NCBI GenBank assembly: GCA_000934665.2
Contig: KZ538490.1
Coordinates: 115,943-135,942, forward strand
Direction of reading: 5' to 3'
Source of the DNA: Catajapyx aquilonaris
Lineage: Eukaryota
DNA: 20,000 bases
The position numbers were made by a program, and so were the translations under genes. Positions 2,294 through 19,659 of the stretch are shown here, one piece after another (position 1 is the stretch's first letter; each line of letters opens with the position of its first letter). The notes under the pieces are model-generated. The model saw nothing but the letters and a program-made list of their open reading frames with translations. It was not told the DNA's origin and did no database searches.

Positions 2294-3317
2294 TTAAACA
2301 ATGAGCATGCTTGAATGATGACAATTTTTGTACTACTGCAGAGTGTTACTCATGACTAATAGACATCATAGAAAGATTTCGCTAATCCCTGTATGCAATT
2401 CAGCTAGGAGAGTGTAGTAAAAGTTGACGTACCGAAAGTTATTATGACAGTGGTGCCAGTGATTGCACAAAATCTCTTAGATTACAATTGAAGCAACCGT
2501 AAGATTGCAACTTCTTGCCATTTGATATCACAAATAATCATCCAATTATAAATTGTATGCTGAATCACATCTTGAAAGGTGGTCATGCGTGATATGAAAG
2601 TATTGACCCAGAATATAAAAATCTATCACAAGATACATGCATGCATAAATTAAAAGTGCAAGTGAATATTTGAGGACTAGGAAAATTACTAAAGATAATA
2701 TAAACATTGCATCTGACACCTGCCGCAATGCAAGGAATGTGTTCTCTGCAACATGGGTAAACATGCAAATTGCATGCTGTCACATTGCATAAGAGGACAG
2801 CATAAAAGATGAGGTTGTAAGAATACTGTACAGTACCTAGAAGGCAAGTGCAGAGGCATATAATTTATGTGCAGCATTTCCTTTCATTTGTCCTCGGTCT
2901 AACACCTGCATAAAGTAGTTATAAATAGGAACGTGTGGTATTAAAATTCCACAGCAAGTTGGCGGGAAGTAATCCTTTCATACAGTCTTGAATACTTCCA
3001 ACATTTCCATGCCCAATGCTTCCCAATGCTACGTATGCAAAATTTTACTGAGTAAGGATGGTTGATTAGTACATTATTGGCTTGGAAAGAATTTAAACCT
3101 TATTTGTGTAGTGGCGGAACTCTATTCTGCCATAACTGTTACGTAATGAGACTTTAGGCCATTATATGCATAGGTCAAATGGAAATAGATAACGTCAATA
3201 TGAATAATGGTTGCAGTGTAAGAAATCCCTAAGCTATGCTGGATTTTCTTGGAGTGAAATTACATTTGCTGTCATTTTTGTCAAGTCTGTAGTCCTGCGC
3301 TATGTCTGACCAACTTA

Positions 3318-3448
3318 GGGCCAATTCACATGGCCACTTCTTTTTCCTAAGAGAAGCTTTAGTATGACCATTCTTTATTGTTATTTAATATTAAATGGAG
3401 TTTCTAAAGCCTCCATTAGGAAAAAAAAGTGGCAGTATAAAAGGGCTG
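3318..3448. mobile_element. Palindromic (hairpin) MITE, PIF/Harbinger/Tourist-like
   Basis: Arms 3333-3362 and 3404-3433 are 26/30 reverse-complementary; outer arms are more degenerate; flanked by TTA (3315-3317) and TAA (3449-3451). Superfamily assignment is inferred from the TWA flanks. Confidence 0.65.
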
Positions 3449-3887
3449 TAACAGGACAGGATAGTGTATATTCATATTTAAATGCGAATATATTTAGAGA
3501 AGCTGCTTGCCGTATGGATAACTCATGCTAGTAATTGCTAGATGGTCAGTTTAAAAAATATATCCTCGTACTAACTTCAAGATTGTAGGTTTGCTCCTGT
3601 GCAAAGTAGATACATGAGTGTGATTCCTGTTTCACAATTTATATGTTTAAAAATACCAGTATTTATTTATTTTTCTAATACCTTTCAACCACATTGTCGC
3701 TTTGCAAGTAGCAGTTGTAGTATTGGATAACATGGAATATACAAATATTAACTGAGATTGTACAGAAGTAGCTTCTTGTCAGTAGTGAGAGGCTAAACAC
3801 CATTGTTAAATAGCAGACACTGTTTCTTCCCTCACTGACTTTTTTTCCAATTCCCCCTTGTACTCATGACCACCTTCTTCCTCGCAG

Positions 3888-4259
3888 GAGACGAAGCGGC
3901 CATCGAAAGAGATGCAGGTGACCATTGCCCGCCAGCTGGGCCTGGAACCCACCACAGTGGGCAACTTCTTCATGAACGCCCGGCGGCGGTCAATGGACAA
4001 ATGGAAAGACGAGGTGGAGAGTCCCGGCAAGAGCACCCCAACACCATCAAGCGGAGCCCCAGCAACCCCAACCACCCCCACCCCAGCACCCCAGACCCCA
4101 TCCACGGTGGTCACCCAGGTGGTCACGCAGGTGGTCACCCAGGTGAGCCCAGTGGTGGCCCACGCCCATCCTCAGCAGCAACAGCAGCACCAGCAACACC
4201 AACAGCAACACCAGCAGGTTGTGGCTCAGCCCCAGGTGCACACCACAGACGCGTTGTGA
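3888..4259 (+). CDS. onecut: ONECUT (HNF6-family) CUT-homeobox transcription factor, terminal coding exon (C-terminal part of the homeodomain plus a low-complexity tail)
   Basis: Pyrimidine tract and CAG acceptor ending at 3887, then ETKRPSKEMQVTIARQLGLEPTTVGNFFMNARRRSMDKW, with the ONECUT-diagnostic F48/M50 (NFFMNARRR) in helix 3; followed by a P/T-rich, VVTQ-repeat, poly-Q/H tail; TGA at 4257-4259. Upstream exons (CUT domain) were not found in the window. Confidence 0.95.
   Translation, partial: ETKRPSKEMQVTIARQLGLEPTTVGNFFMNARRRSMDKWKDEVESPGKSTPTPSSGAPATPTTPTPAPQTPSTVVTQVVTQVVTQVSPVVAHAHPQQQQQHQQHQQQHQQVVAQPQVHTTDAL
4107..4142 (+). repeat. 12-bp coding tandem repeat x3 (VVTQ)
   Basis: GTGGTCACCCAG GTGGTCACGCAG GTGGTCACCCAG. 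Confidence 0.9.
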
Positions 4260-4367
4260 CGCTATGCCACATTCGCCCCTCCGCACCCCCCGGCCCCCCC
4301 ACCCCCTCCGCACCCATCAGCCCCTCTGGACCAGTATGCTGCAAACAGCTACTTGGTCTTGAACTGA
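4260..4367 (+). CDS. Candidate stop-codon readthrough extension of ONECUT (35 aa)
   Basis: In frame after UGA-C: RYATFAPPHPPAPPPPPHPSAPLDQYAANSYLVLN, then TGA at 4365-4367; CCN codon periodicity; composition switches to A-rich immediately after the second stop. Confidence 0.6.
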   Translation, partial: RYATFAPPHPPAPPPPPHPSAPLDQYAANSYLVLN

Positions 4368-5030
4368 TCAAAAAAATACAAAAAAACACAAAAAAATTTC
4401 ACCACCAGAGCCCCAGGTTAACGAGGAAGGACCTCCCTCTTGGTTGTCTTAAGTGTCATTCTCGTGATCATCCCGTGCTGATTGTTGAAAGAGAGAGTGA
4501 GAGAGAGAGCGATAGAGAGGGAGAGTCTACCGATACCACAAACAATCTCTGATTGTTGATGAAAAGCAATTTTGGTTGGTGAGGGACCACCGTCGAGTGG
4601 GTGCATTTATGCAAGCAAGGCATCGTTGAGATTAGGGTGGCAGGTACTGGATAGCTACATCAACACCAGAGAGTCATATGCAAAAGTGACGAGGAGCAGT
4701 GGAAGGAATAAAAGTTTAAATAAATGAGAGAGAACAAGAGCAGGGTGGGTGGGTACTGACAAAGAACTAAACACGTGAGAACATTTCCCTTATTTATTTT
4801 CACAGAGGCACGTGAAAGAGTGGCAGTCATTCTCATCTCAGGGGGTATCCGTGTGAAGAAAGGGCGTGATACGTACTTAAAATGTATACATAAGCAATCA
4901 TATTCAACAGCCACAAGGAAGCACAGAGGGTTCAGTCGCTGGATATGCAAGGTGCAAGCAAAATGCACCATGTCTGATATTGTATGTCACCTCTGAAGCG
5001 GACCATTGTAATTGCACATGAATGATATTC

Positions 5031-5050
5031 ACCAAAGTTGTCACCAAAGA
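5031..5050 (+). promoter_or_regulatory. Tandem miR-9 seed-match sites
   Basis: ACCAAAG (7mer-m8, 5031-5037) and ACCAAAGA (8mer, 5043-5050), complementary to the miR-9 seed CUUUGGU. Confidence 0.6.
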
Positions 5051-6430
5051 CCTGCTTAGAGTGGGCACTTTGATACGATCCGGAGCACTTTGCTTCCACC
5101 TTGCAATGCCTGCTGTCTGGTGAATGGATGTAGCACTAACGGGTTCTTTCTATTGGCCAAGGCATAGTTGCGACAATGACGAGGGAAGACAGAGTGAAAA
5201 TAAATTCTGGGGGTAATGCGTAAACCCACCCACAATGCTCTGAATATTATCCGACCATATTTTCGAAGATAATCCCTTTTCTTGTACTATAATAATGACA
5301 ACGTGCTATTTTCTTTCCTCTGCATCGACAATACACCCTGGAACGGTGTAGATTGTACTATTCAAAGAGTGTGGTCTAGCACCTTTCCTTCCTCCCCCCT
5401 TTCCCCCCATCCCTCATACCCTGTATTCACCCCGACCCTTACACATCTCCCATTATATGAAAAAAACCTCACACCTTCATAGTGTTAGCAGTGTAAATGC
5501 AACAAGAGTAGGGGGAATGCCTGAGATTAACATTTCCTTTCTGAAACTTGCAAAGAGGGGACAACTTTGTACATAGGCTGCATCCAATTCCGAGAAGCAG
5601 GTTATAGTCGCTTTCTGAGTTATATTTGCAAGAAAACGTTTATATATAAAAAAAAGAAAGAGAGAGGAACCACACGAGTCTACTCACTGCTCTTGCAATT
5701 TTGCTGTTTGTTTACACTCTCAACCAATAACGTATGATTAGGTAGGGAGACACCGTGTTTAATTTTGCACCTGAACTGGTCAGGGCGAGGGATAGGCGTC
5801 ATTTATTTATTTCGATTGTCTCTTTTTTATTTTTTTGAAAATAAGGGGCACACCTTCAGACAACTGGCTGTGATTAAACTGGTCATCAGTGTACTGTATT
5901 AATTGGTTGTAATTGGTGGATGATTACATTCCAAAAAGAAAGAGGAGGCAATGGGAGGAGGTGAGGGGAATGGGGCAAGGTCAAACATAAATTATGAACC
6001 AAAAAAAAAGCAGGGGTCACCCAATCAATATAGTAATGGCTTTGCTGCGATGGGTCGAGTGAAGATATTTGACCTACGATTTAAAATACCATTTCTAGTC
6101 ATTCTTTGTTGTGAAATACATCGTACCTAATTATTTATTTTCTTCCTTTTGTTTTACATCTATTTTTACTATTATTTTATGTTTTGTTGTTTTATGTTTG
6201 TTATGTTGTTTCTTTTTTCCCGTTTTTTTTTAGATGCCTCTATGCTTAGTGTTGAGAAAAAGGAGGAAAAGGAAGACCAGAAGAAAAATAGGCTAAAATG
6301 TAATTGCCGTTTCTTCTTGAAGACCCAAGTACCTGACCTCATATATGAGCAAATACTAAAAGACAGAGAGAACCTCGTAACATGAAGGTATGTAGTGTGT
6401 CCTCACACTGCATGGGATTCATCTAACAGT

Positions 6431-6497
6431 CACATGTAATTATTACTTCACTTAACAATTCCATACACATGTAATAATAACTTCACTTAACAATTCC
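6431..6497. repeat. 35-bp tandem duplication (about 2 copies)
   Basis: CACATGTAATTATTACTTCACTTAACAATTCC-ATA followed by CACATGTAATAATAACTTCACTTAACAATTCC. Confidence 0.9.
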
Positions 6498-8124
6498 TTT
6501 GTCTGTATATCATTTTGTTCAATACATGTGGGTCAAAGGTCATCATAAATGGAGCCAGTGTCGTTGAAGCCATTGCTTATTACTCCCCCTACATCCAGAC
6601 CCGTAACCTTACCGTACGCTAAATTAACGGACTGATTGACAGGGCAATCAGGAAAGGCAAGGATATCACGAAGTAATTAGTTTGCTTTTGTTTTGCCTGA
6701 TTGCACTTAAGTTTTGTCCACAATGTTTGGTGCGTTTTGTGCTAACCTCCTGTTGGAATACATGTGCGTCAAAGAAGGGGTGCCACGATTCTGTAACTTA
6801 GTCACTTGTTGGGTGGCATGGTTTTTGCTGCTTCTACTGTAATTTATTTGTGCGGCCAAATTTATTTTGGTCCTAGTCATAAAATTAACTAAAAAAGTAG
6901 ATGGAGGTGATGGCAGATAAGTTATTTGTGTGCACGTGGTTTTTTAAAAAACAAAGGTTCACCCATTGATCTCTACCATTGCATTCCAGCCTAATTTATT
7001 ACACATGAATGTTAAAATTTAATGTACATAATTTCATCATCATATTTATTTGTAACTTATTTTACTGTGCGCAACCCCCATGAACTGTACAAAAAATATG
7101 TTGTCATTAATTTATGGGTTCACGATTGATCTGATCATGAGTCCGAGTCTATTTATGCAAAAACCTTTTATGTCTTTGGTTCGCGAAATGTGGCGTGAGA
7201 GGGGACAAGAATCAAAACAATCATTTCGATGTTTATGTTTTTCTGTGCATATGTTTGGTGCAAAATTTTAGCCAAATGGTGAGTGTCCTATGCATTACGG
7301 CATCTCCTTATTTTTAAAACCCCCTTTTTAGGCAAGATTATTGTTTAATGACCGTTCCTTGTTCCTTCCATCTTTCTAAGGATGCAGGCTCTTCAACTAT
7401 GCACGTTTACTTTTAGTCACAATTGTTTGTCGTAGGATCTGGATAAGGATTGTGTGATGTTATTATTGCCTCGGAAGCATTCCAGTTGCTGATACCTTGC
7501 ACAGTTTGCTTTCATTAGTCCTTTCTGTCTCTGTCTCTCTCTATTCCTTCCTCACACATTACTCACACCATCTCTGTACCCATCATCATTATTTTTATTA
7601 CGACCACAAAGAGTAACTATGGGGAGGGGTGGGAGTGCTGGGAAGTCAAGTGGAAAAAAAAGTAATATATTATTATCGGGCACTTTCTCTTCTTTTCAAT
7701 AGCAAGCTGTCTAACATTTTATTTGTTGCTAGTATGTAAAAGCATACCCCCCTTCAGTAAAAAAAAATGCAGTTGCCTGTGGCCTAGTCACCTGGTAGAT
7801 ATGCACAGAATTTTTACATTTTTATAGAAGTCTGGTTAGTTCATTTGTAGTCCTAGCAGAGAAACAGTGTCCCTTCTTTTTCTACTTAATAATCAATGTA
7901 CAATGAGCTCAATGTTAGGTTTAGAAGCGATTGAAAATGGAAGTCATGCCCCTCCCCGCTCCACCCCAATTTACATTAAACTTCCCCCCCACACCACCCC
8001 CTCAAAACCTGCCCCAACAATCACATTAACTTAAGTTGTTCATGTACTTGTGTTTTTCAAAGGCACTGTTACGTGTCGGGTGTGTCCCCACTCCACCAGT
8101 CTCGTTAGAATGGTGATTATTGGT

Positions 8125-8150
8125 GATGATGATGATGATGATGATGATGA
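8125..8150. repeat. (GAT)8 microsatellite
   Basis: Read directly from the sequence. Confidence 0.95.
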
Positions 8151-9884
8151 AAACAATGGTGGTGGTTATTCTGGTCATGGAAGGAAAAAAAACAACAACA
8201 GTATATATAATAATATAATGTCGCCCTTCTCTCCCACACATACACATATTTGTATAAAAATAATGACACTTAGGATGAAGGAATGAAGAGAGAGTGCGAG
8301 AGAGAGAAAGAGCGTGCGTGTGAGAGAGAGAGTTGTTTCTTTATCATGAGAACTCTATGGAATGAACGAGAGAAGGGCACAAGTCACTCAGTTTTTAGTC
8401 GTCTTGTACAATATCTTAAGAGGGAATCGTGTGTTGATTCAGATTTTAGTCTCACAAAAACCCTACTGAGTGCACAAAATGTACAAATGGTTCCTAGAAT
8501 GGGAAACATCTGAAGAGCTGTAACTTTTTTTTTTTCTCCCCCTTCGATGATACTCAGCGAGGTGGAAAGATTGGCTTAACGTAGCCCTGTGCCCCCCAGA
8601 TTAATCCCTTGACCCTTGACCTTCTGTGAAGATGGACCCCTCCCCCCTTGCTCCCTGCCCCAAACCCAAGTGAGGACATAAGTGTTGTATATAAGCCTGT
8701 AGGGAAAGTCTGGTTTCGATGACAAATAATAAATAAATGTACAAAGTAAGATACTTAAGGAACTGCCCAGTTGAAGTCACAAAGGCAACTTTTGAACCTC
8801 TTCAGATATTTCCTGTTTCTTTTTCGCGTGTGTATCGTGCAATAACACTTTTTGTGTGTGGAGTGTATCTTGATGACATATCATGTGTAAGTTATATATG
8901 TTTTCATGCAGGTACAGCCATTTTTTTTCTTTCTTTTTTTATCTTGGACCATTTTAGTTCTGAAGCTAAAAAGAATTGTAATGTGTGAAAAATTAAGAGC
9001 TTTATTATTGTCCACAAAAAAAAAAATTGTCGAAATTTGACAAGTGCTCTAAAGTGCATATTGCATTTTAGAAGGGGAGATTCAATTGACACGTGGGGAG
9101 TGAGTAGTATGACGAAGAACCTTGTACAGATGACCAATGTCCAGTGGTACCAAACACGGTAACAAGGTCTCACAGCGACACATAATAATTATCCCTGCTA
9201 GAGACGCCCAAAAATATAACAACAACAATGTATCATTGAAAAGAAGACGTAATATTATGCTCTTTTTTGCCCCCTGATTTTTGGGGGTGTAAAAATAATT
9301 TATTGCAGACACACTGTGGGAAAAAGTTTACACGAAAAATAAGGAGTTTAAAAAAAAGAATAATCATATGGCTCTTTGTTGCTGGGAGAGAAGGGGGGAA
9401 AAAAGAAGAGGGAAAAATATTGGACTCTACGTTTTCAAGGTTATCAAATCCGTAGTTTTGCAAGAGTAATCTTACACTTTTAGACCCTTGTAGGTATATC
9501 AGTCACATTGTGCAATAGTGAATTTGTGTGTGCTGTCTTCTCCGCCATAGTGCCCTTTTTCTGAGGTGATTGATGATGATGCACCGCGGCACTTCTTCTC
9601 GAAGGTAGTTACGTACTGTTTTAAAAAAAATATGAAAACATAAAAACAGCCCTGCCAGTCACCTCCTGAAGACATTTTATGTGTACTGGACTCCTTGTCA
9701 AAAGGGAAGATGTGCCGTATAAATATATATTGAAAAAAATAAAAGAGATAAGGAGACAAACAAAAACAAGTACACCACATTTCCAACGGCCAAGATATAC
9801 GTGGCACGTGTTTTGCACCATGTTTGTGCCGTACAATACAGTATTATAGGTTTGGTCTGTCAGCATCTCCCAAATGAACATATA

Positions 9885-11829: not shown

Positions 11830-11926
11830 CGTACTCTTATGAAACAGCTTCCATCAGCTATGCATTTGTGCTTCAAAACATTTTAATTTTTTAATAATCC
11901 ATGTTGTACAAATATTTTTGCTACAG

Positions 11927-12481
11927 TTTTTTACGTCATGCCAGGAGGGAATCTTGGAAACTGTAAAGAAAGTGGTCAAAGAAACTGGTATTGGGCAGCT
12001 GGCAGGGGAGAAGAAGGATGGTGGAGACAGTGGAATACACGTTGCAGCCAAAGAAGGAAGGGCAGAAGTTGTTTCATTCCTGATGAGGAAGGGATGGCCG
12101 GTTGATCAGCAAGGGTCTTTTGGCCTCACTGCACTGCACCACGCAGCCCAGCACGGCCACCTGTCCACATGCCGAGTTCTCATTCGAGCAAGAGCAAAAG
12201 TGCGGGTGAAGGCCAGTAATGGAGATGAACCCATCCACAGGGCTTCGCATGGGGGCCACGCTGAAGTTATTGAACTTCTTCTCAAAAGTGGGGCTCTCTT
12301 GACGGACAAAGGCTACAAAGGTCAAACACCTCTGCATCATGCAGCACGGAGAGGACATCGTGAAGCGGTTGACTTTCTTCTGTCACAAGGGGCGGATAAA
12401 ACGGAGAAGGATGCTGATGGGATGACTCCAGTGGACTATGCAAAAACACTGGGGCTTTCCAATGTAGCTGATTTGATTGAG
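11927..12481 (+). CDS. Multi-ankyrin repeat protein, exon 2 (module A1, ~5-6 ANK repeats)
   Basis: CTACAG acceptor, GAG|GTGAGG donor, phase 0-0; motifs GLTALHHAAQHGH, GDEPIHRASHGGH, GQTPLHHAARRGH. Confidence 0.92.
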
Positions 12482-12549
12482 GTGAGGGTAATTATTCATT
12501 TTGGGAGTTGTTAGTGAAGTAAATAACTATTTTCATTTGAACCCCCCAG

Positions 12550-13014
12550 AAAGGAAGTAATTCTACTGAGAATCAGTCAGGGTCAGGTTCAGCATCCAGA
12601 AGAAGGAACTTGAAGAAACAACATGCCATTGATGATGATGACATGACACATGACACTTCTGCCAAGCAAAGTCACTCATCCCTGCCACCAGAGCATCAAT
12701 CAGATGCTGGGTCATCACAAGATGACAATACGCCTGATCCCATAGATGAAGACGACATGGCCCATGGCACTCCTCCCTCGCAAAGTCGCTCATCCCCATC
12801 ACTAGAACATCAATCAAACGATGGGTCCTTGCATGACGACACTTCACCTGACCCCACAGATGAAGACGGGAATGACGATGATTATAGCCAGAACCAGGAG
12901 AGTGAGGATGAAATATCTGCCACTCACACTTTCATGCAGCAGGACTCGCAGCCATCTACCTCAAGTCGCTTTGGCTTCAATCGGAGAGAGGAGTATGCGA
13001 ATCAAAGACAAACT
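12550..13014 (+). CDS. Multi-ankyrin repeat protein, exon 3 (acidic Ser/Asp-rich disordered linker)
   Basis: CCCCAG acceptor ending at 12549, ACT|GTGAGT donor, open phase 0-0 frame of 155 codons containing a 38-aa internal repeat. Confidence 0.8.
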
Positions 13015-13141
13015 GTGAGTGAAATAGTCCAACATTTTCCAACAGATTTGCCGTTCCTCATTGTAGTGTAAGCACTGAAAAACAATGGTCCGTAAAATGA
13101 CTTACTACTCCAATGAGTACAATACACATGTTACATTGCAG

Positions 13142-13582
13142 GTGGATCCGGTAGCTGACTTCCTAGATGCGTGCAAGAAAGGCCGTTTGATCAAGGTGAA
13201 AGAGTTGGTGGAAAGAGAGGGGCTGGATGTAAATGAAGCAAAGGACGGCTGTGGTTGGACTGGCCTTCACTTCGCTGCTTGGATGGGCCACCGGAACGTT
13301 GTTGAATTCCTGCTTGAGCAAGGGGCAAAAGTGGATCACAGGGATGGAGCATATGCCAGCCAGACTCCATTGCACTTGGCATCATGGAATGGCCATGAAC
13401 CTGTAGTGCGTCTCCTTATGGATGAAGGAGCAGACCCTAGGAAAAAGGACGATTATGATGAGACACCTGCTCAGTTGGCCAAGGACGAAGGACATGTGTC
13501 ACTTGCTCAAGTCATTCAGGAGGAGGAGAAGCTGGTTGTAACATGTGGATTGAAGCACGAGAGAGGCGATGCCAAAGAAAAG
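13142..13582 (+). CDS. Multi-ankyrin repeat protein, exon 4 (module B1)
   Basis: TTGCAG acceptor, AAG|GTGATA donor (an alternative in-frame GTAACA donor lies at 13538); motifs GWTGLHFAAWMGH, QTPLHLASWNGH. Confidence 0.88.
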
Positions 13583-13773
13583 GTGATATTACCATTAAGT
13601 TACTTTATGACCAACATTTAGTGCTTTCTGGAGAAAATCACTTTGAATGTGTCTGTTTTGTATAGAACTCATCAGATTGGACTTGTTAACATTGTTATAT
13701 GTTGAGCATACAAAATACCTTCTAAAATTTTTGAATAGCAGTTACAAAAATTGTAATATTTCTTCTTTCCAAG

Positions 13774-14343
13774 GTGAAGGAGGAATTCTTGTATGCCTGC
13801 CGAGAAGGTTTGTTGAAGGTGGTAAAGAACAAGGTGGAGACAAAGGACATTGAAGAACTCATGGAGTGGAAGGATAATTTGGGCGACAGTGGGATCCACC
13901 ATGCTTCCTGCAAAGGACGCGATCAAGTGGTTTCGTACTTGTTGAGTGCAGGATGGGATGTAAAGCAGAAGGGTTGGTTGGGATGTACACCACTTCATCG
14001 AGCTGCTGAATATGGCCACCTCTCTACATGTGAAATATTGATAGCTCAAGATGAGGCGGCTGTGAAGGATAGGGACAGCAATGGTGATCAGCCAATTCAC
14101 TCAGCTTCAGCTGGAGGTCACGTGGAAATTGTCGAGTTGCTCTTGGAAAAGGGTGCAAAGACGGAAGACCGAGGATGGAATAATCAGACTCCACTCCACA
14201 GGGCTGCATTAGACGGCCACTTGGATGTTGTCCTCTTCCTCATGTCGAAGGAAGCAGATACCCTGGCTGAAGATGCTGATGGAAATCTTCCACTTCACTG
14301 GGCCAAGAAAGTTGAAAAGGCTGCGGTCGTACATGTATTAGAG
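13774..14343 (+). CDS. Multi-ankyrin repeat protein, exon 5 (module A2)
   Basis: Pyrimidine tract plus AAG acceptor, GAG|GTATAT donor; motifs GCTPLHRAAEYGH, GDQPIHSASAGGH, QTPLHRAALDGH. Confidence 0.92.
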
Positions 14344-14420
14344 GTATATCTTGTGTGCACATTTTTTCTTTAGGCATAAAAATGTATGGAAATAACAAAT
14401 CACCAGTTATTTTTATTTAG

Positions 14421-14807
14421 GTGAATCCAGCTAAGGAATTTTTAGATGCCTGCAAGAAGGGGAGCTTAGCGAAAGTGGCAGACTGGGTAGTGGCAAAGGG
14501 ACTGGACGTTAATGAGGTGAAGGATGACTGTGGGTGGACCGGGTTGCATTTTGCTGCTTGGATGGGCCAGCTGGATGTTGTCAAGTTCCTGATTGACCAA
14601 GGAGCAATGGTAGATCAAGCTGAAGGTGCTTATTCCAGCCAGACACCTTTGCATCTGGCAGTGTGGAATGACCAGCATCATGTGGTGAGATTTCTTCTCG
14701 GTCGAGGTGCAGACCCAAAGAAGCAAGATGACTATGAAGAAACTCCAGAGGAGCTGGCTGTTAAGATAGAAAATACTCCTATCATACAGGAGTTCCGAGA
14801 GCACAAG
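14421..14807 (+). CDS. Multi-ankyrin repeat protein, exon 6 (module B2)
   Basis: TTTTATTTAG acceptor, AAG|GTAAAG donor; clear paralog of exon 4 (shared FLDACKKG and CGWTGLHFAAWMG). Confidence 0.9.
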
Positions 14808-15076
14808 GTAAAGGTGTCTATACTTGATTGATTTACACTGTGCGTTTCAGTATTTAGTTCACACTCTTATAAATTAAAATCTTGCATGCCCATTTCCAAT
14901 TGAGTGCAGCTCTGAAGGAGAGGTGTTTGAGTCGAGCATGTCAGCTCAATTCTGAAGTGCAAGGTATTCACTCTCATGCCGAAATGTTTTTTCAGGCCCA
15001 AGAAATGTTTTGTTTGCACTTATCTCGGTAGAAGTACAGTCATGTAACTAACAAAAAATCGTGCTAATACCCACAG

Positions 15077-15643
15077 GAGCAAAGGGATTTTCTTCAGGCC
15101 TGCCGAGATGGTTGCATGGACGAAGTGAGAAAAGCTGTGAAGGAGAAAGGAGTGGAAGCGTTGCAAGACATAAAAACTGAGTGTGGAGACAATGGGATTC
15201 ATATTGCTGCCAAAGAGGGTAAGCTGGAAGTGGTGAAGTACCTGATGAGAGAAAAATGGAGGGTGGACGAACAGGGTGGATGGCGTTGGACTGCTCTCCA
15301 TAGGGCAGCTCGGGCAGGTCATCTGCCTGTATGTCAGCTGCTAATTAAAGAAGGAGCGACTGTGAATTTGAAGGACTTGAAAGGTGACCAACCCATTCAC
15401 TGTGCAGCAATGAGAGGACACACAGATATAGTGAAGCTCCTTCTCAAAAAAGGAGCAAATGTGAAGGATGCAGGGTGGAACAGTCAGACTGTTCTTCACA
15501 TTGTTGCAAGGACTGATAATGTGAATCTTGCCCGCTTCCTTATATCAAAGGGAGCCAGCTCAATGGTAAAGAATGGCAATGGAAAGACGGCCCTGGATCT
15601 GGCGAAGGAGAAAGGAGACGAAGGGATGATCAGCGTTCTGGAT
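15077..15643 (+). CDS. Multi-ankyrin repeat protein, exon 7 (module A3)
   Basis: CTAAT branch point plus CCACAG acceptor, GAT|GTGAGT donor; motifs WTALHRAARAGH, GDQPIHCAAMRGH, GKTALDLA. Confidence 0.92.
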
Positions 15644-16297
15644 GTGAGTATGTGAAATGCTGGTCAGAATGTCTCATAATTTAGATGGCACTTTGTCTGA
15701 AAAAATAATATAGCATTGTTTGCATGAAAGAAACATGGGATGTTTCTTATCAAGTAGGAGAAAGTACTTAGTGGAGCCTACTTTACCTTCAACTAGATGA
15801 AAATTTACACTGCAACTCACCTGGGGTATAAAAGACAATCCTAAATCAATTACCTGCATCATGATGACTTCTGTTATTACATGCACACATTTGAGTAGGG
15901 GCATTAAATTGAGGAAATAGTGAGAGTTTTGGGGGACTAACTTTGCTGGTCAGAAACACAGGACAAATTCACCTTTGCTTACAAGAGTACTGCATACCAA
16001 ATAAGAAACATAGGTTCCTGTTAATCTATGACAGAGCAGATGTTAAAAATTCCACTAAATAACTGAAAGATCTGTAAAGTGCTGGAGTATTTCTGAATGT
16101 GTGGAACTGTGAGAACCTATCTCATAAAGTCATAATTAATGGCGATAGTGGCCAGTTACTGCCCCCTGCCAAACAAAATTCACTTTAAATTGCACTGTAC
16201 TCAGTTTACTACAGATAATTACAGGTCCAATGATTAAGTTCTAGGCGTCTCTACAGTGCCTATGTTTTCAACTAATTTTCTTGTGTTAATTTTTCAG

Positions 16298-17416: not shown

Positions 17417-17651
17417 TTATTCAATCGATATATTCTGGTTATCCAACATTTCTTGGCGGAAGCCTGTATCTTGCAATGCATGATTCATGAACTTGTATAT
17501 ATGTGCAAATTGTGCCATGGTTCTGATCATTTTGGCTCTGTTATTGGCAAGCGCCACCACAGTTTCAAATATGTTGACCTTTTGCTCATACAAAGCTTGT
17601 TGCAAAAGGATGTCTGCAGCTACGAACACTCCGGTGCGGCCAACACCAGAA
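17417..17651 (-). CDS. Receptor-type protein tyrosine phosphatase, terminal exon (P-loop second half, Q-loop)
   Basis: TTTCAG acceptor; (S)SGVGRTGVFVAADILLQQ...VNIFETVVALANNRAKMIRTMAQFAHIY; the TAA stop overlaps an AATAAA. Confidence 0.92.
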
Positions 17652-17693
17652 CTGAAATAAATAAAAAATAAAAAAATTGTGCTTTCAATATTA

Positions 17694-17920
17694 GGGGAGA
17701 CCGGGGCTAGAATGATGGTACACAGTCATTTTACACTTCATTTTTTTCCTGATGCCAGTTAAGACTTTTTCACTGTAATTTTTATATTAATATTAGACAT
17801 TTGAGCATATATAGGCCTTTGTGATATTTTCACATGTTTGCATTTTAGATATGCTATCCACTAGAAATTATTTGAAAATTCTCTGCGTGTGCCATCATGC
17901 CCCTTGCCTGGGGAACAATG
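17694..17920. mobile_element. Truncated DNA-transposon/MITE end in the last PTP intron
   Basis: TA followed by GGGGAGACCGGGGC...ATGATGGTACAC, with an internal inverted copy GTGTGCCATCATGCCCC (17887-17903); would explain why this intron is 409 bp versus 60-77 bp for the others. No matching distal TIR seen. Confidence 0.5.
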
Positions 17921-18060
17921 TTTTTAGTGACTAACAGGCAGTCATAAGAGTCATGGACAGGGATCGTCATCCCAGTCCAATTCACCTGTTTTAAACCCAT
18001 TTTGAACCTGTTTAATACCCATTACTCAGTATCTTGATTCTCGCTGCATCAGTGTCTCAC

Positions 18061-18221
18061 CTGCAGTGGACTAGTGTTAGAACTCTCTTATCCATTGCTT
18101 TTCTAGCCTCTCTGATGAACAATAGCAAGATTCTGTTGTCCACGGGGCAGTCGTCGTTGTTCCACAGTGAAAACTGCAACTGGGTCACAGTTCGGTACTC
18201 TCCTCTGTATATTGAACTCGA
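18061..18221 (-). CDS. RPTP exon (WPD-loop region to VHCS)
   Basis: TTCCAG acceptor; SSSIYRGEYRTVTQLQFSLWNNDDCP...LTLVHCS; AG|GTGAGA donor, phase 2. Confidence 0.88.
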
Positions 18222-18283
18222 CTGGAATCAGTGTATTAATGTGAAAATGCCAATTAAAAGTTAGGGACAATTTGTATACTCAC

Positions 18284-18400
18284 CCGTCTAACTGAGAATG
18301 TGCGCTTCACGTAAGGACCACTTTTCTCAGATTTTAAAGTTTTAACAACAATGTCTTCGTAGTCTACCTTATCATCATCCCAGTACTGGTGACATTTTCC
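18284..18400 (-). CDS. RPTP exon (KCxQYW motif)
   Basis: GKCHQYWDDDKVDYEDIVVKTLKSEKSGPYVKRTFSVRR; canonical AG acceptor and GTGAGT donor. Confidence 0.92.
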
Positions 18401-18460
18401 CTGGAAGTAGAAATATGATTCCCTCATACTTGTGAGCGATCAATTTAATTAGTGGCTTAC

Positions 18461-18595
18461 TTTTCCCCTTTCGAAGCATTCTGTCAGCATAATTATCAGC
18501 TTGACCTTTTCTTGCCACACCATCCGCCAGAAATCCTCGCACGTTGCTCGGTTTGGTCCCTGAGCTGCTATGTACTCAAATTCCCCACTGTACCC
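18461..18595 (-). CDS. RPTP exon (YIAAQGP / DFWRMVW motifs)
   Basis: GYSGEFEYIAAQGPNRATCEDFWRMVWQEKVKLIIMLTECFERGK; canonical splice sites. Confidence 0.95.
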
Positions 18596-18659
18596 CTGGA
18601 AATGTGTAACATTGTCAGTTGGACAAATCTTTATGTTTCCTCCACAGCAGTGTTATAAC

Positions 18660-18733
18660 CTCAATGTATGAAGCATTGATGTAATCTGATGATTCAGCAG
18701 GATTAGGTGTTAACTTGACCCTGTCCTTGTCAT
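18660..18733 (-). CDS. RPTP exon (DxxRVKL / DYINAS motifs)
   Basis: (Y)DKDRVKLTPNPAESSDYINASYIE; TTGCAG acceptor, GAG|GTTATA donor. Confidence 0.93.
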
Positions 18734-18802
18734 CTGCAAGCAACAAGCATTCACCGCATCATCTCACGTGTTACAGTGCATGGAAATAACATTGTGACTT
18801 AC

Positions 18803-19041
18803 ATGGATGAACTTCCTTGTCCCTGTTCTTGGGCTCATTTTCTGGCCTACTTGCTACATCCATGGTGTAATCAAAAGCACAGCACACTTGCTGCAGCCTG
18901 TCATATTCATCCAGCAAGAGGGTGTCACTTTGATCCATTAGCAAGTTAAAATTGGTCTCGAAGTGATCGATGTCTATGGCTCGTTGCTCGTCTATGAACT
19001 GGCGTCTTCGAGTGTTTGAGACGAGAGACGTTTCTTCGGAC
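18803..19041 (-). CDS. RPTP exon (juxtamembrane region and start of PTP domain)
   Basis: SEETSLV...LLLDEYDRL...ASRPENEPKNRDKEVHP; CTCTAG acceptor, T|GTAAGT donor. Confidence 0.9.
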
Positions 19042-19111
19042 CTAGAGTATGTGCAGTGGTTACAATAGTGATCGACACAGAACACACTGAAAATATTGGC
19101 GCGTCACTTAC

Positions 19112-19226
19112 CTTTTTCGAAGCTTCCTGCGGTACATCAGAGCGGAGGAAATTACCGCTGCGACTACTATAATTGCCACGGAACATCCGATTATAATGGT
19201 CAGTAAGTTGGATCCTTCAGGTTTAA
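19112..19226 (-). CDS. RPTP transmembrane exon
   Basis: KPEGSN-LLTIIIGCSVAIIVVAAVISSALMY-RRKLRKR: hydrophobic span followed by a basic stop-transfer cluster; GCACAG acceptor, AG|GTAAGT donor. Confidence 0.92.
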
Positions 19227-19303
19227 CTGTGCGGGGAGGATAGTGTGATTCAGTCATATCTAATGGCTTGATAGTTTCTCTGCATGGTTTTGAAGATGCG
19301 TAC

Positions 19304-19588
19304 CATCAGACGAAGTTTGGGCACTTATACCAAGTTGAGGGCCCTCTGCCACAGTGAAAGCTGACACATTCACTTTATACGTAGTCGCAGGCTCCAAATT
19401 CGTGATGGACAACTCTTTACTGTGGCAGTCAGTTTCGTTGTAACTGGAATTGCTTGGGATGTCAGGACCTTGGTAGCGGACTATGTACTTGCGAATGATC
19501 CCGTTGCTTATGATCGGATCGTCCCACTGCAACTGTACGGACGTGTTGCTTCGTTTGGCGACTCTCAAGTTTCGCAACAGTCCAGGAG
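19304..19588 (-). CDS. RPTP fibronectin type III exon
   Basis: Phase 1-1 exon of 285 nt: PGLLRNLRV...SVQLQWDDPIISNGIIRKYIVRY...LSITNLEPATTYKVNVSAFTVAEGP, a typical FN3 consensus. Confidence 0.92.
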
Positions 19589-19659
19589 CTGTGGACCCAA
19601 CGGAAAAATTTGATCGATTTTGAGAAGGTACTTGCCCAACTGCATGGTAATTCGCTCAC

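Follow-up and report, generated by a model that had tools for sequence, protein, structure and literature searches.

ONECUT proteins are conserved regulators of neuronal and sensory-cell differentiation, and the locus described here raises the question of whether one of them is produced in two forms from a single stop codon. The window (the whole 20,000-nt stretch of contig KZ538490.1 of Catajapyx aquilonaris that was analyzed) contains the last coding exon of a ONECUT-type homeobox gene (3888..4256, + strand). As the first-pass annotation of this DNA had described, its frame ends with TGA followed by C, behind which the same frame stays open for 35 codons (RYATFAPPHPPAPPPPPHPSAPLDQYAANSYLVLN; 4260..4364, +) to a second in-frame TGA, itself followed by T (4365..4367, +). 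These codons may be a candidate readthrough tail or the plain, C-rich beginning of a 3' untranslated region (3'UTR). The likeliest reading, at about even odds (0.5), is that the UGA-C stop of this locus is leaky and conserved and that the low-complexity tail behind it is peculiar to the lineage. An additional ONECUT form lengthened at the C-terminus would, if real, escape standard annotation.

The exon was delimited by its acceptor (tcgcag/GAG), by Pfam and by its homologues. It reads ETKRPSKEMQVTIARQLGLEPTTVGNFFMNARRRSMDKWKDE and continues into a tail rich in T, P, V and Q that closes with the C-terminal motif TTDAL; it encodes the second part of a homeodomain with a ONECUT-type helix 3 region (…NFFMNARRRS…); a Pfam scan found both Homeodomain and Homeobox_KN above the cut-off. 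A search of longer proteins gave 896 matches at E<=0.001, and the 120 of these that were listed are nearly all arthropod onecut, HNF6 or 'One cut domain family member' proteins; the homeodomain part (41-42 residues) is 100% identical to many insect proteins among those listed. Judging by its homeodomain and C-terminus, the gene belongs to the ONECUT (cut-homeobox) family, in its arthropod-type form. By eye, no upstream open reading frame (ORF) of at least 90 amino acids in the window resembles a CUT domain, no dedicated search having been run; the upstream CUT-domain exon probably lies outside the window, which would contain the last exon only.

The end of the protein is as characteristic as its homeodomain part. 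The terminal residue is L in 96 of the 120 listed onecut proteins, mostly within a [D/E/H]-x-L triplet (DVL in 37, HLL in 19, DLL in 8, EVL in 8, DML in 6, plus others), and the remaining C-termini are VLN (15 proteins, mosquito) or of other kinds (9 proteins). The final L of TTDAL falls in one column with the C-terminal L of nine other proteins, a position that is invariant in this 10-sequence alignment, and the window's C-terminus shows the arthropod-type [D/E/H]-x-L ending. The stop, which occupies 4257-4259 right behind TTDAL, is real and sits at the ancestral ONECUT C-terminus. As a separate observation, the 15 N-ending proteins (all mosquito; P0014, P0015, P0041, P0043, P0050, P0059, P0061 and others) finish with ...EHNYQQHVLN and also contain an internal ...N[VL]ILEH... 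stretch; their C-terminus is remodelled relative to that of other arthropods.

The stop codon, with C at +4 (4257..4260, +; following bases CGCUAU), stands in a weak termination context. UGA-C has been called the leakiest stop context (PMC13278127), it is used by 36% of the A. gambiae readthrough candidates (legend of Supplemental Figure S1, PMC5100048) and, according to the order of contexts in that figure, TGA-C is the rarest of 12 contexts among 12,058 non-readthrough A. gambiae stops. A leaky context of this type (UGA, C at +4) is a feature of insect-type readthrough, and the window possesses it.

The same context recurs in relatives. Metagenome contigs scanned for the onecut last exon yielded at least five loci (L001-L005), and scans of genome contigs and viral contigs added no further ones. 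L001 ends with ...SDVL, TGA-C and an extension of 18 codons, L002 with ...QDVL, TGA-C and 9 codons, L003 with ...QLDL, TGA-C and 82 codons, L004 with ...SSCA, TAA-A and 8 codons, and L005 with ...TSCG, TGA-C and 1 codon. TGA-C was thus found in four of the five listed loci, and in all three of those ending with D-x-L. These loci are deeply diverged: the synonymous third positions within the homeodomain agree at 9/32 to 20/35 and are saturated, and the intron before ETKRPSKE is absent from two of the five. By our own arithmetic, the probability of at least four TGA-C contexts out of five is about 2e-4, with 1/12 taken as an upper bound from A. gambiae that is assumed, not measured, for these loci. 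The first-pass annotation had proposed looking for a conserved UGA-C in orthologues, and this comparison bears it out; the stop codon and its context, another hallmark of insect-type readthrough, appear to be conserved among orthologues, albeit in a small sample.

L003 is a better readthrough candidate than the window. Its extension (1765-2016) has 0, 2 and 8 stops in frames 0, +1 and +2, respectively, and its 82 open codons were reached by 642/20000 and 222/20000 shuffles (P 0.011-0.032), which makes it longer than chance. A strong hairpin starts at +13 after the stop. The L003 protein ends with ...SAQLDL before TGA-C, and the end of the extension is acidic (…DSDQVILENHEEILETEEEVLDDDDCLEPPD), like insect onecut tails, the similarity being weak (20-61 of 1000 shuffles, uncorrected). 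In L002, the context behind the stop (CAACCA) fits the stop-proximal readthrough motif UGA-CA[A/G]N[U/C/G]A described in PMC13278127. As a side observation, the intron upstream of the last onecut exon of L001 gave a weak Rfam match to mir-9457 (L001:1356-1411, - strand; E 1.2e-4, with 38.4 bits falling short of the family's gathering score of 90).

Support of another kind comes from Drosophila. The D. melanogaster onecut gene (FBgn0028996) is listed in Supplementary Table T3 of a 2026 readthrough catalogue, a preprint, as a tier 2 gene with a score of 8, tiers 1-2 being the high-confidence group of a catalogue of about 1,400 Drosophila genes; readthrough was called there by 3/3 ribosome-profiling classifiers, the stop is TGA with a stop-codon identity of 1, and the extension comprises 384 nt (PMC13278127). 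According to that table, Drosophila onecut shares with the window an orthologous gene, a TGA stop and an in-frame extension with a poorly conserved peptide. It differs in that its extension is longer (384 nt vs 105 nt) and that its call, unlike the reading proposed for the window, rests on ribosome footprints (PMC13278127); furthermore, the Drosophila tail is acidic and that of the window T/P/V/Q-rich.

Comparable features can be seen in other known systems. The insect genes described as showing 'abundant' readthrough (PMC5100048) share with the window the UGA-C, the persistence of stop and context from lineage to lineage, a gene with a regulatory product (a transcription factor) and a low-complexity, presumably disordered extension; in the published account, however, what defines those candidates is a protein-coding evolutionary signature within the extension. 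A Drosophila POU/Oct factor (PMC8417969) and traffic jam (PMC9226519) are likewise developmental transcription factors extended at the C-terminus by readthrough, but these two are reported with experimental proof and a functional read-out, whereas the window is a candidate. A full-text literature search returned, among the titles listed, none on translational readthrough of onecut.

On the reading that we favour, a UGA-C stop placed right after the conserved D-x-L motif would terminate poorly and would have been kept in distant lineages. Most ribosomes would stop there and release the canonical protein ending with TTDAL, and a minority would decode the UGA with a near-cognate tRNA (Arg or Trp) and continue for 35 codons to the UGA at 4365-4367. 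In Drosophila proteomics, the residue found at UGA is Arg or Trp. The product would gain a tail of 36 residues, proline-rich and presumably disordered. Selection would act to retain the leaky stop, possibly together with a few codons directly following it, but not the sequence of the tail, which would be lineage-specific and partly made by a 27-nt duplication, its frame being open to the extent that base composition gives. The stop with its context, its place at the ancestral C-terminus and the recurrence of TGA-C in relatives are observed, whereas readthrough in this organism, its rate and any function of the tail are inferred. The second isoform proposed by the first-pass annotation is partly supported: the UGA-C recurrence and the tier 2 listing in Drosophila favour readthrough at this stop, but the arguments drawn from the open frame and the idea of a selected tail fall away.

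Since readthrough is common in insects, with about 1,400 Drosophila genes listed, onecut among them, one more case of the insect type would not be surprising. A more useful point is that the weak UGA-C of onecut seems to have persisted in lineages that lie very far apart, and the peptide behind it has not. If conservation of the stop context holds more widely, onecut could serve as a test case for the target of selection in readthrough genes with non-conserved extensions.

The main rival, and a serious possibility, is ordinary termination at TTDAL with a chance ORF behind it. According to this explanation, the stretch 4260-4364 belongs to the 3'UTR as its C-rich beginning and owes its open frame to composition, readthrough, where it occurs, amounts to an unselected background leak, and the recurrence of TGA-C results from a short overlapping RNA or DNA element, from composition or from a small-sample accident. 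The observations on this side and against a leaky conserved stop begin with the open frame itself. All three frames of the + strand are open over 4260-4359, the other two running for 237 and 71 codons. The extension consists of C to 48-50%, and the probability of 35 stop-free codons is 0.60 when calculated from the local base composition and 0.23 when estimated by shuffling the 300 nt after the stop. C-rich control windows (non-exonic, 105 nt, C >=35%, from the same window; they overlap, so the counts give a rate only) had the given frame open in 103 of 300 cases on the + strand and 53 of 127 on the - strand, i.e. about a third. An in-frame ORF longer than chance, which is a further feature of insect-type readthrough, is absent from the window. 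Because all three frames are open and the chance probability is about 0.2-0.6, the open frame carries no weight.

Codon structure within the tract adds little. The first-pass annotation held that the C-rich tract resolves into CCN proline codons in exactly this frame; this pattern is weak, since the non-C letters of 4275-4333 are split 5/5/10 over codon positions 1, 2 and 3 (not significant) and the tract is partly repeat-made. An imperfect direct repeat of 22 nt (4276-4297 and 4303-4324, 86% alike; 4276..4324, +) has a spacing of 27 nt, equal to 9 codons, and is the source of the repeated PPHP, so that a part of the proline-codon pattern exists because the 22-nt repeat was duplicated within the C-rich tract. 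A position-specific likelihood trained on the exon preferred the frame of the stop by 3.9-5.7 nats, but this margin was reached by 575/5000 and 395/5000 shuffles (not significant), and non-coding control tracts gave margins of 0.4-7.6 nats. The earlier statement that GC-rich composition continues past the first stop is accurate (GC 0.55-0.66 across the stop), yet neither this continuity nor the open frame nor the CCN codons, all of which had been put forward as signs of readthrough, exceeds chance. Where a tract is rich in C, a long open frame is no evidence of readthrough on its own.

Ordinary termination also agrees with what lies further downstream. Two more tracts with >=50% C, at 5372-5456 and 7939-8024, are present on the + strand downstream of onecut (none on the - strand), and these also read as Pro-rich peptides. 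A long 3'UTR could account for the tracts as a strand-specific feature, perhaps C-rich protein-binding sites; alternatively, they may reflect local composition.

Elements that stimulate readthrough were sought next to the stop, either as the motif CA[A/G]N[U/C/G]A or as an RNA structure about 8-15 nt downstream. The window's CGCUAU does not fit the motif, and no structure was detected in the first 100 nt after the window's stop (z = +0.74); a stimulatory element adjoining the stop, also a feature of the insect type, is hence missing here. When 4257-4400 was folded (z = -2.34, with 6 of 200 shuffles folding as well), the only hairpin predicted took in the last part of the extension together with the second stop (4316..4368, +), the first 58 nt after the first stop being unstructured.

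The tail peptide has no recognizable relatives either. None of the 120 listed matches (of 896) from the search of longer proteins covers the extension, and the best of them cover 26-57% of the query, which corresponds to the homeodomain and low-complexity parts. A near-length search with the region of residues 40-159 gave 0 matches at E<=10, a full HMMER pass with tail plus extension (TGA=W) through 1.84 billion representative proteins gave 0 matches, and no Pfam family was found within the 35-codon extension. Two candidate relationships were rejected: the kinship of the tail end (PLDQYAANSYLVLN) with the mosquito C-terminus (PLEHNYQQHVLN), for which 3288/5000 and 1169/5000 shuffles score as well, and similarities of the tail to named proteins, which are low-complexity matches only.

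The extensions of the relatives tell the same. Lengths of 1, 8, 9, 18 and, in the window, 35 codons are as chance gives, L003 (82 codons) excepted, and the extensions of the five listed loci are not alignable with one another. When the four D-x-L loci were aligned as nucleotides in the region of the stop, no conservation was seen past its immediate surroundings, L001 being misaligned by the program. The window and L001 do share a tail architecture (TVVTQ ... polyQ ... [ST]D[AV]L); they agree at 11 of the 18 nt directly behind the stop (reached by nulls in 324/100000 and 256/80089), and the global alignment of their extension peptides beats 94-96% of shuffles (P ~0.04-0.06). These likenesses were picked after looking and are near 0.05 once this is allowed for. 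The proposal of a selected, Pro-rich interaction or activation tail accordingly finds no support, given relatives' extensions of 1, 8, 9, 18 and 82 codons that cannot be aligned with that of the window beyond the weak match to one locus; the tail itself appears to bear no sign of selection as protein.

The published record is divided. The first-pass annotation had suggested consulting the Drosophila and Anopheles catalogues for onecut, and, tier 2 in the one, the gene is missing from the other: onecut, AGAP000061, CG1922 and FBgn0028996 do not occur in the 687-row table of the conservation-based (PhyloCSF) D. melanogaster / A. gambiae catalogue, whose rows jump from AGAP000058 straight to AGAP000063 (Jungreis 2016, PMC5100048). 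In the 2026 table, the extension of Drosophila onecut fails both conservation thresholds (Conserved_SCR 0), its protein identity being 0.51, below the threshold (PMC13278127). Abundant readthrough is reported only for Pancrustacea (insects and a crustacean). Finally, only five relatives were compared, and their background TGA-C frequency was assumed.

Against ordinary termination stand three points: TGA-C, although the rarest non-readthrough context in A. gambiae, occurs in 4/5 deeply diverged listed loci; the Drosophila orthologue was called as a readthrough gene by every classifier applied to its ribosome profiles (PMC13278127); and L003 combines an extension of more than chance length with a hairpin whose distance from the stop is the usual one.

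A bolder version of a leaky conserved stop would see here an ancient, arthropod-wide switch. Not the sequence of the tail would matter but the fact that any extension buries the conserved, free C-terminal D-x-L; selection would hold on to the leaky stop and leave the tail to vary in composition and in length (9 to 127 codons), and one mRNA would yield two functionally different forms of ONECUT. We regard this as rather unlikely.

Far less probable is alternative splicing. Where TTG (Leu) meets TGA, the last base of the one and the first of the other form a GT (TT/GTGAC), which could be used as a weak 5' splice site, so that the stop would be spliced out and the exon linked to one further downstream. 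The window, L001 and L002 all have GTGAC at the stop, and a splice donor would also account for the preservation of TTG-TGA-C in the nucleotide sequence. L003, however, has TTA-TGA-C, without GT, and retains TGA-C all the same. Neither the TT on the exon side nor the C at +5 agrees well with the usual donor consensus (judged without a scorer), all 96 of the L-ending listed proteins finish at this motif, and no joint from 4256-4257 was present in any contig examined, the runs not being on record as RNA.

Selenocysteine is hardly credible as the meaning of the UGA: a conserved in-frame UGA is a selenoprotein signature too, but no selenocysteine insertion sequence (SECIS) or other relevant Rfam match at E<=1 was found in 3800-9000 of the window, nor a SECIS at E<=1 anywhere in L001-L005, which makes this unlikely, and the UGA follows a conserved C-terminus with non-conserved sequence behind it. 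Equally remote is the idea that the TGA stems from a faulty base call or assembly, or from a nonsense mutation of recent date, and that the 35 codons are ordinary coding sequence; no observation in its favour was found. The first-pass annotation had kept the error open, but contigs of runs X1 and X3 span 2800-6800, and one of X4 covers 2800-4279 including the stop, with 0 differences from the window; the word depth over the stop region is 19-34 in these three runs, which come from one sample, probably the source DNA, and are not independent evidence. As the stop follows the conserved D-x-L, exactly where 96/120 listed orthologues end, and is unchanged in these contigs, an error or recent mutation is very unlikely; TGA is also found at the same place in four other listed loci.

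In X4, the contig over the exon ends at 4279 and the next begins at 4286, within the poly-C of the extension, which X1 and X3 cross in one contig; a problem with coverage or with the homopolymer could explain this break, as could a length variant, and no difference is listed. Run X5 (another study, depth ~3) covers 4411-5001, 5162-5436, 5619-5881 and 6334-6603 plus repeat matches, with the stop outside; over 3872-4410 it shows repeat matches only. The CAG/CAA (poly-Gln/His) part of the exon (4166-4217) behaves as a genome-wide repeat because many other contigs match it, in all four runs (summed word depth 257-517), and a GA-rich stretch at 4484-4525 matches many other contigs in the same manner.

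The clearly non-coding 3' region starts directly behind the second stop with an A-rich 10-nt unit (CAAAAAAAYA) present three times (4369..4398, +), in agreement with the A-runs noted earlier at this place. Two AATAAA hexamers (4707 and 4719; 4707..4724, +), identified by pattern only, are the first candidate polyadenylation signals after the stop.

Downstream of onecut, six adjacent long ORFs form a run at 11843-15655 (+). The three that were scanned (11843-12514, 13079-13621 and 15068-15652) encode ankyrin repeats (Pfam Ank_2, E down to 9e-51), in which two unit types alternate by eye, and this suggests a tandem array or one multi-exon ankyrin gene. Matches in the Atlas were to generic ankyrin clusters only. 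On the opposite strand, exons of a receptor-type protein tyrosine phosphatase were recognized at 17417-19655 (-), where Y_phosphatase covers 17417-17725 and fn3 covers 19260-19655; a search with the FN3 exon gave 2 weak matches only, one of them to a bivalve protein at 32%. The window contains a single N, at about 880-1230, which appears as an X in a minus-strand ORF located there.

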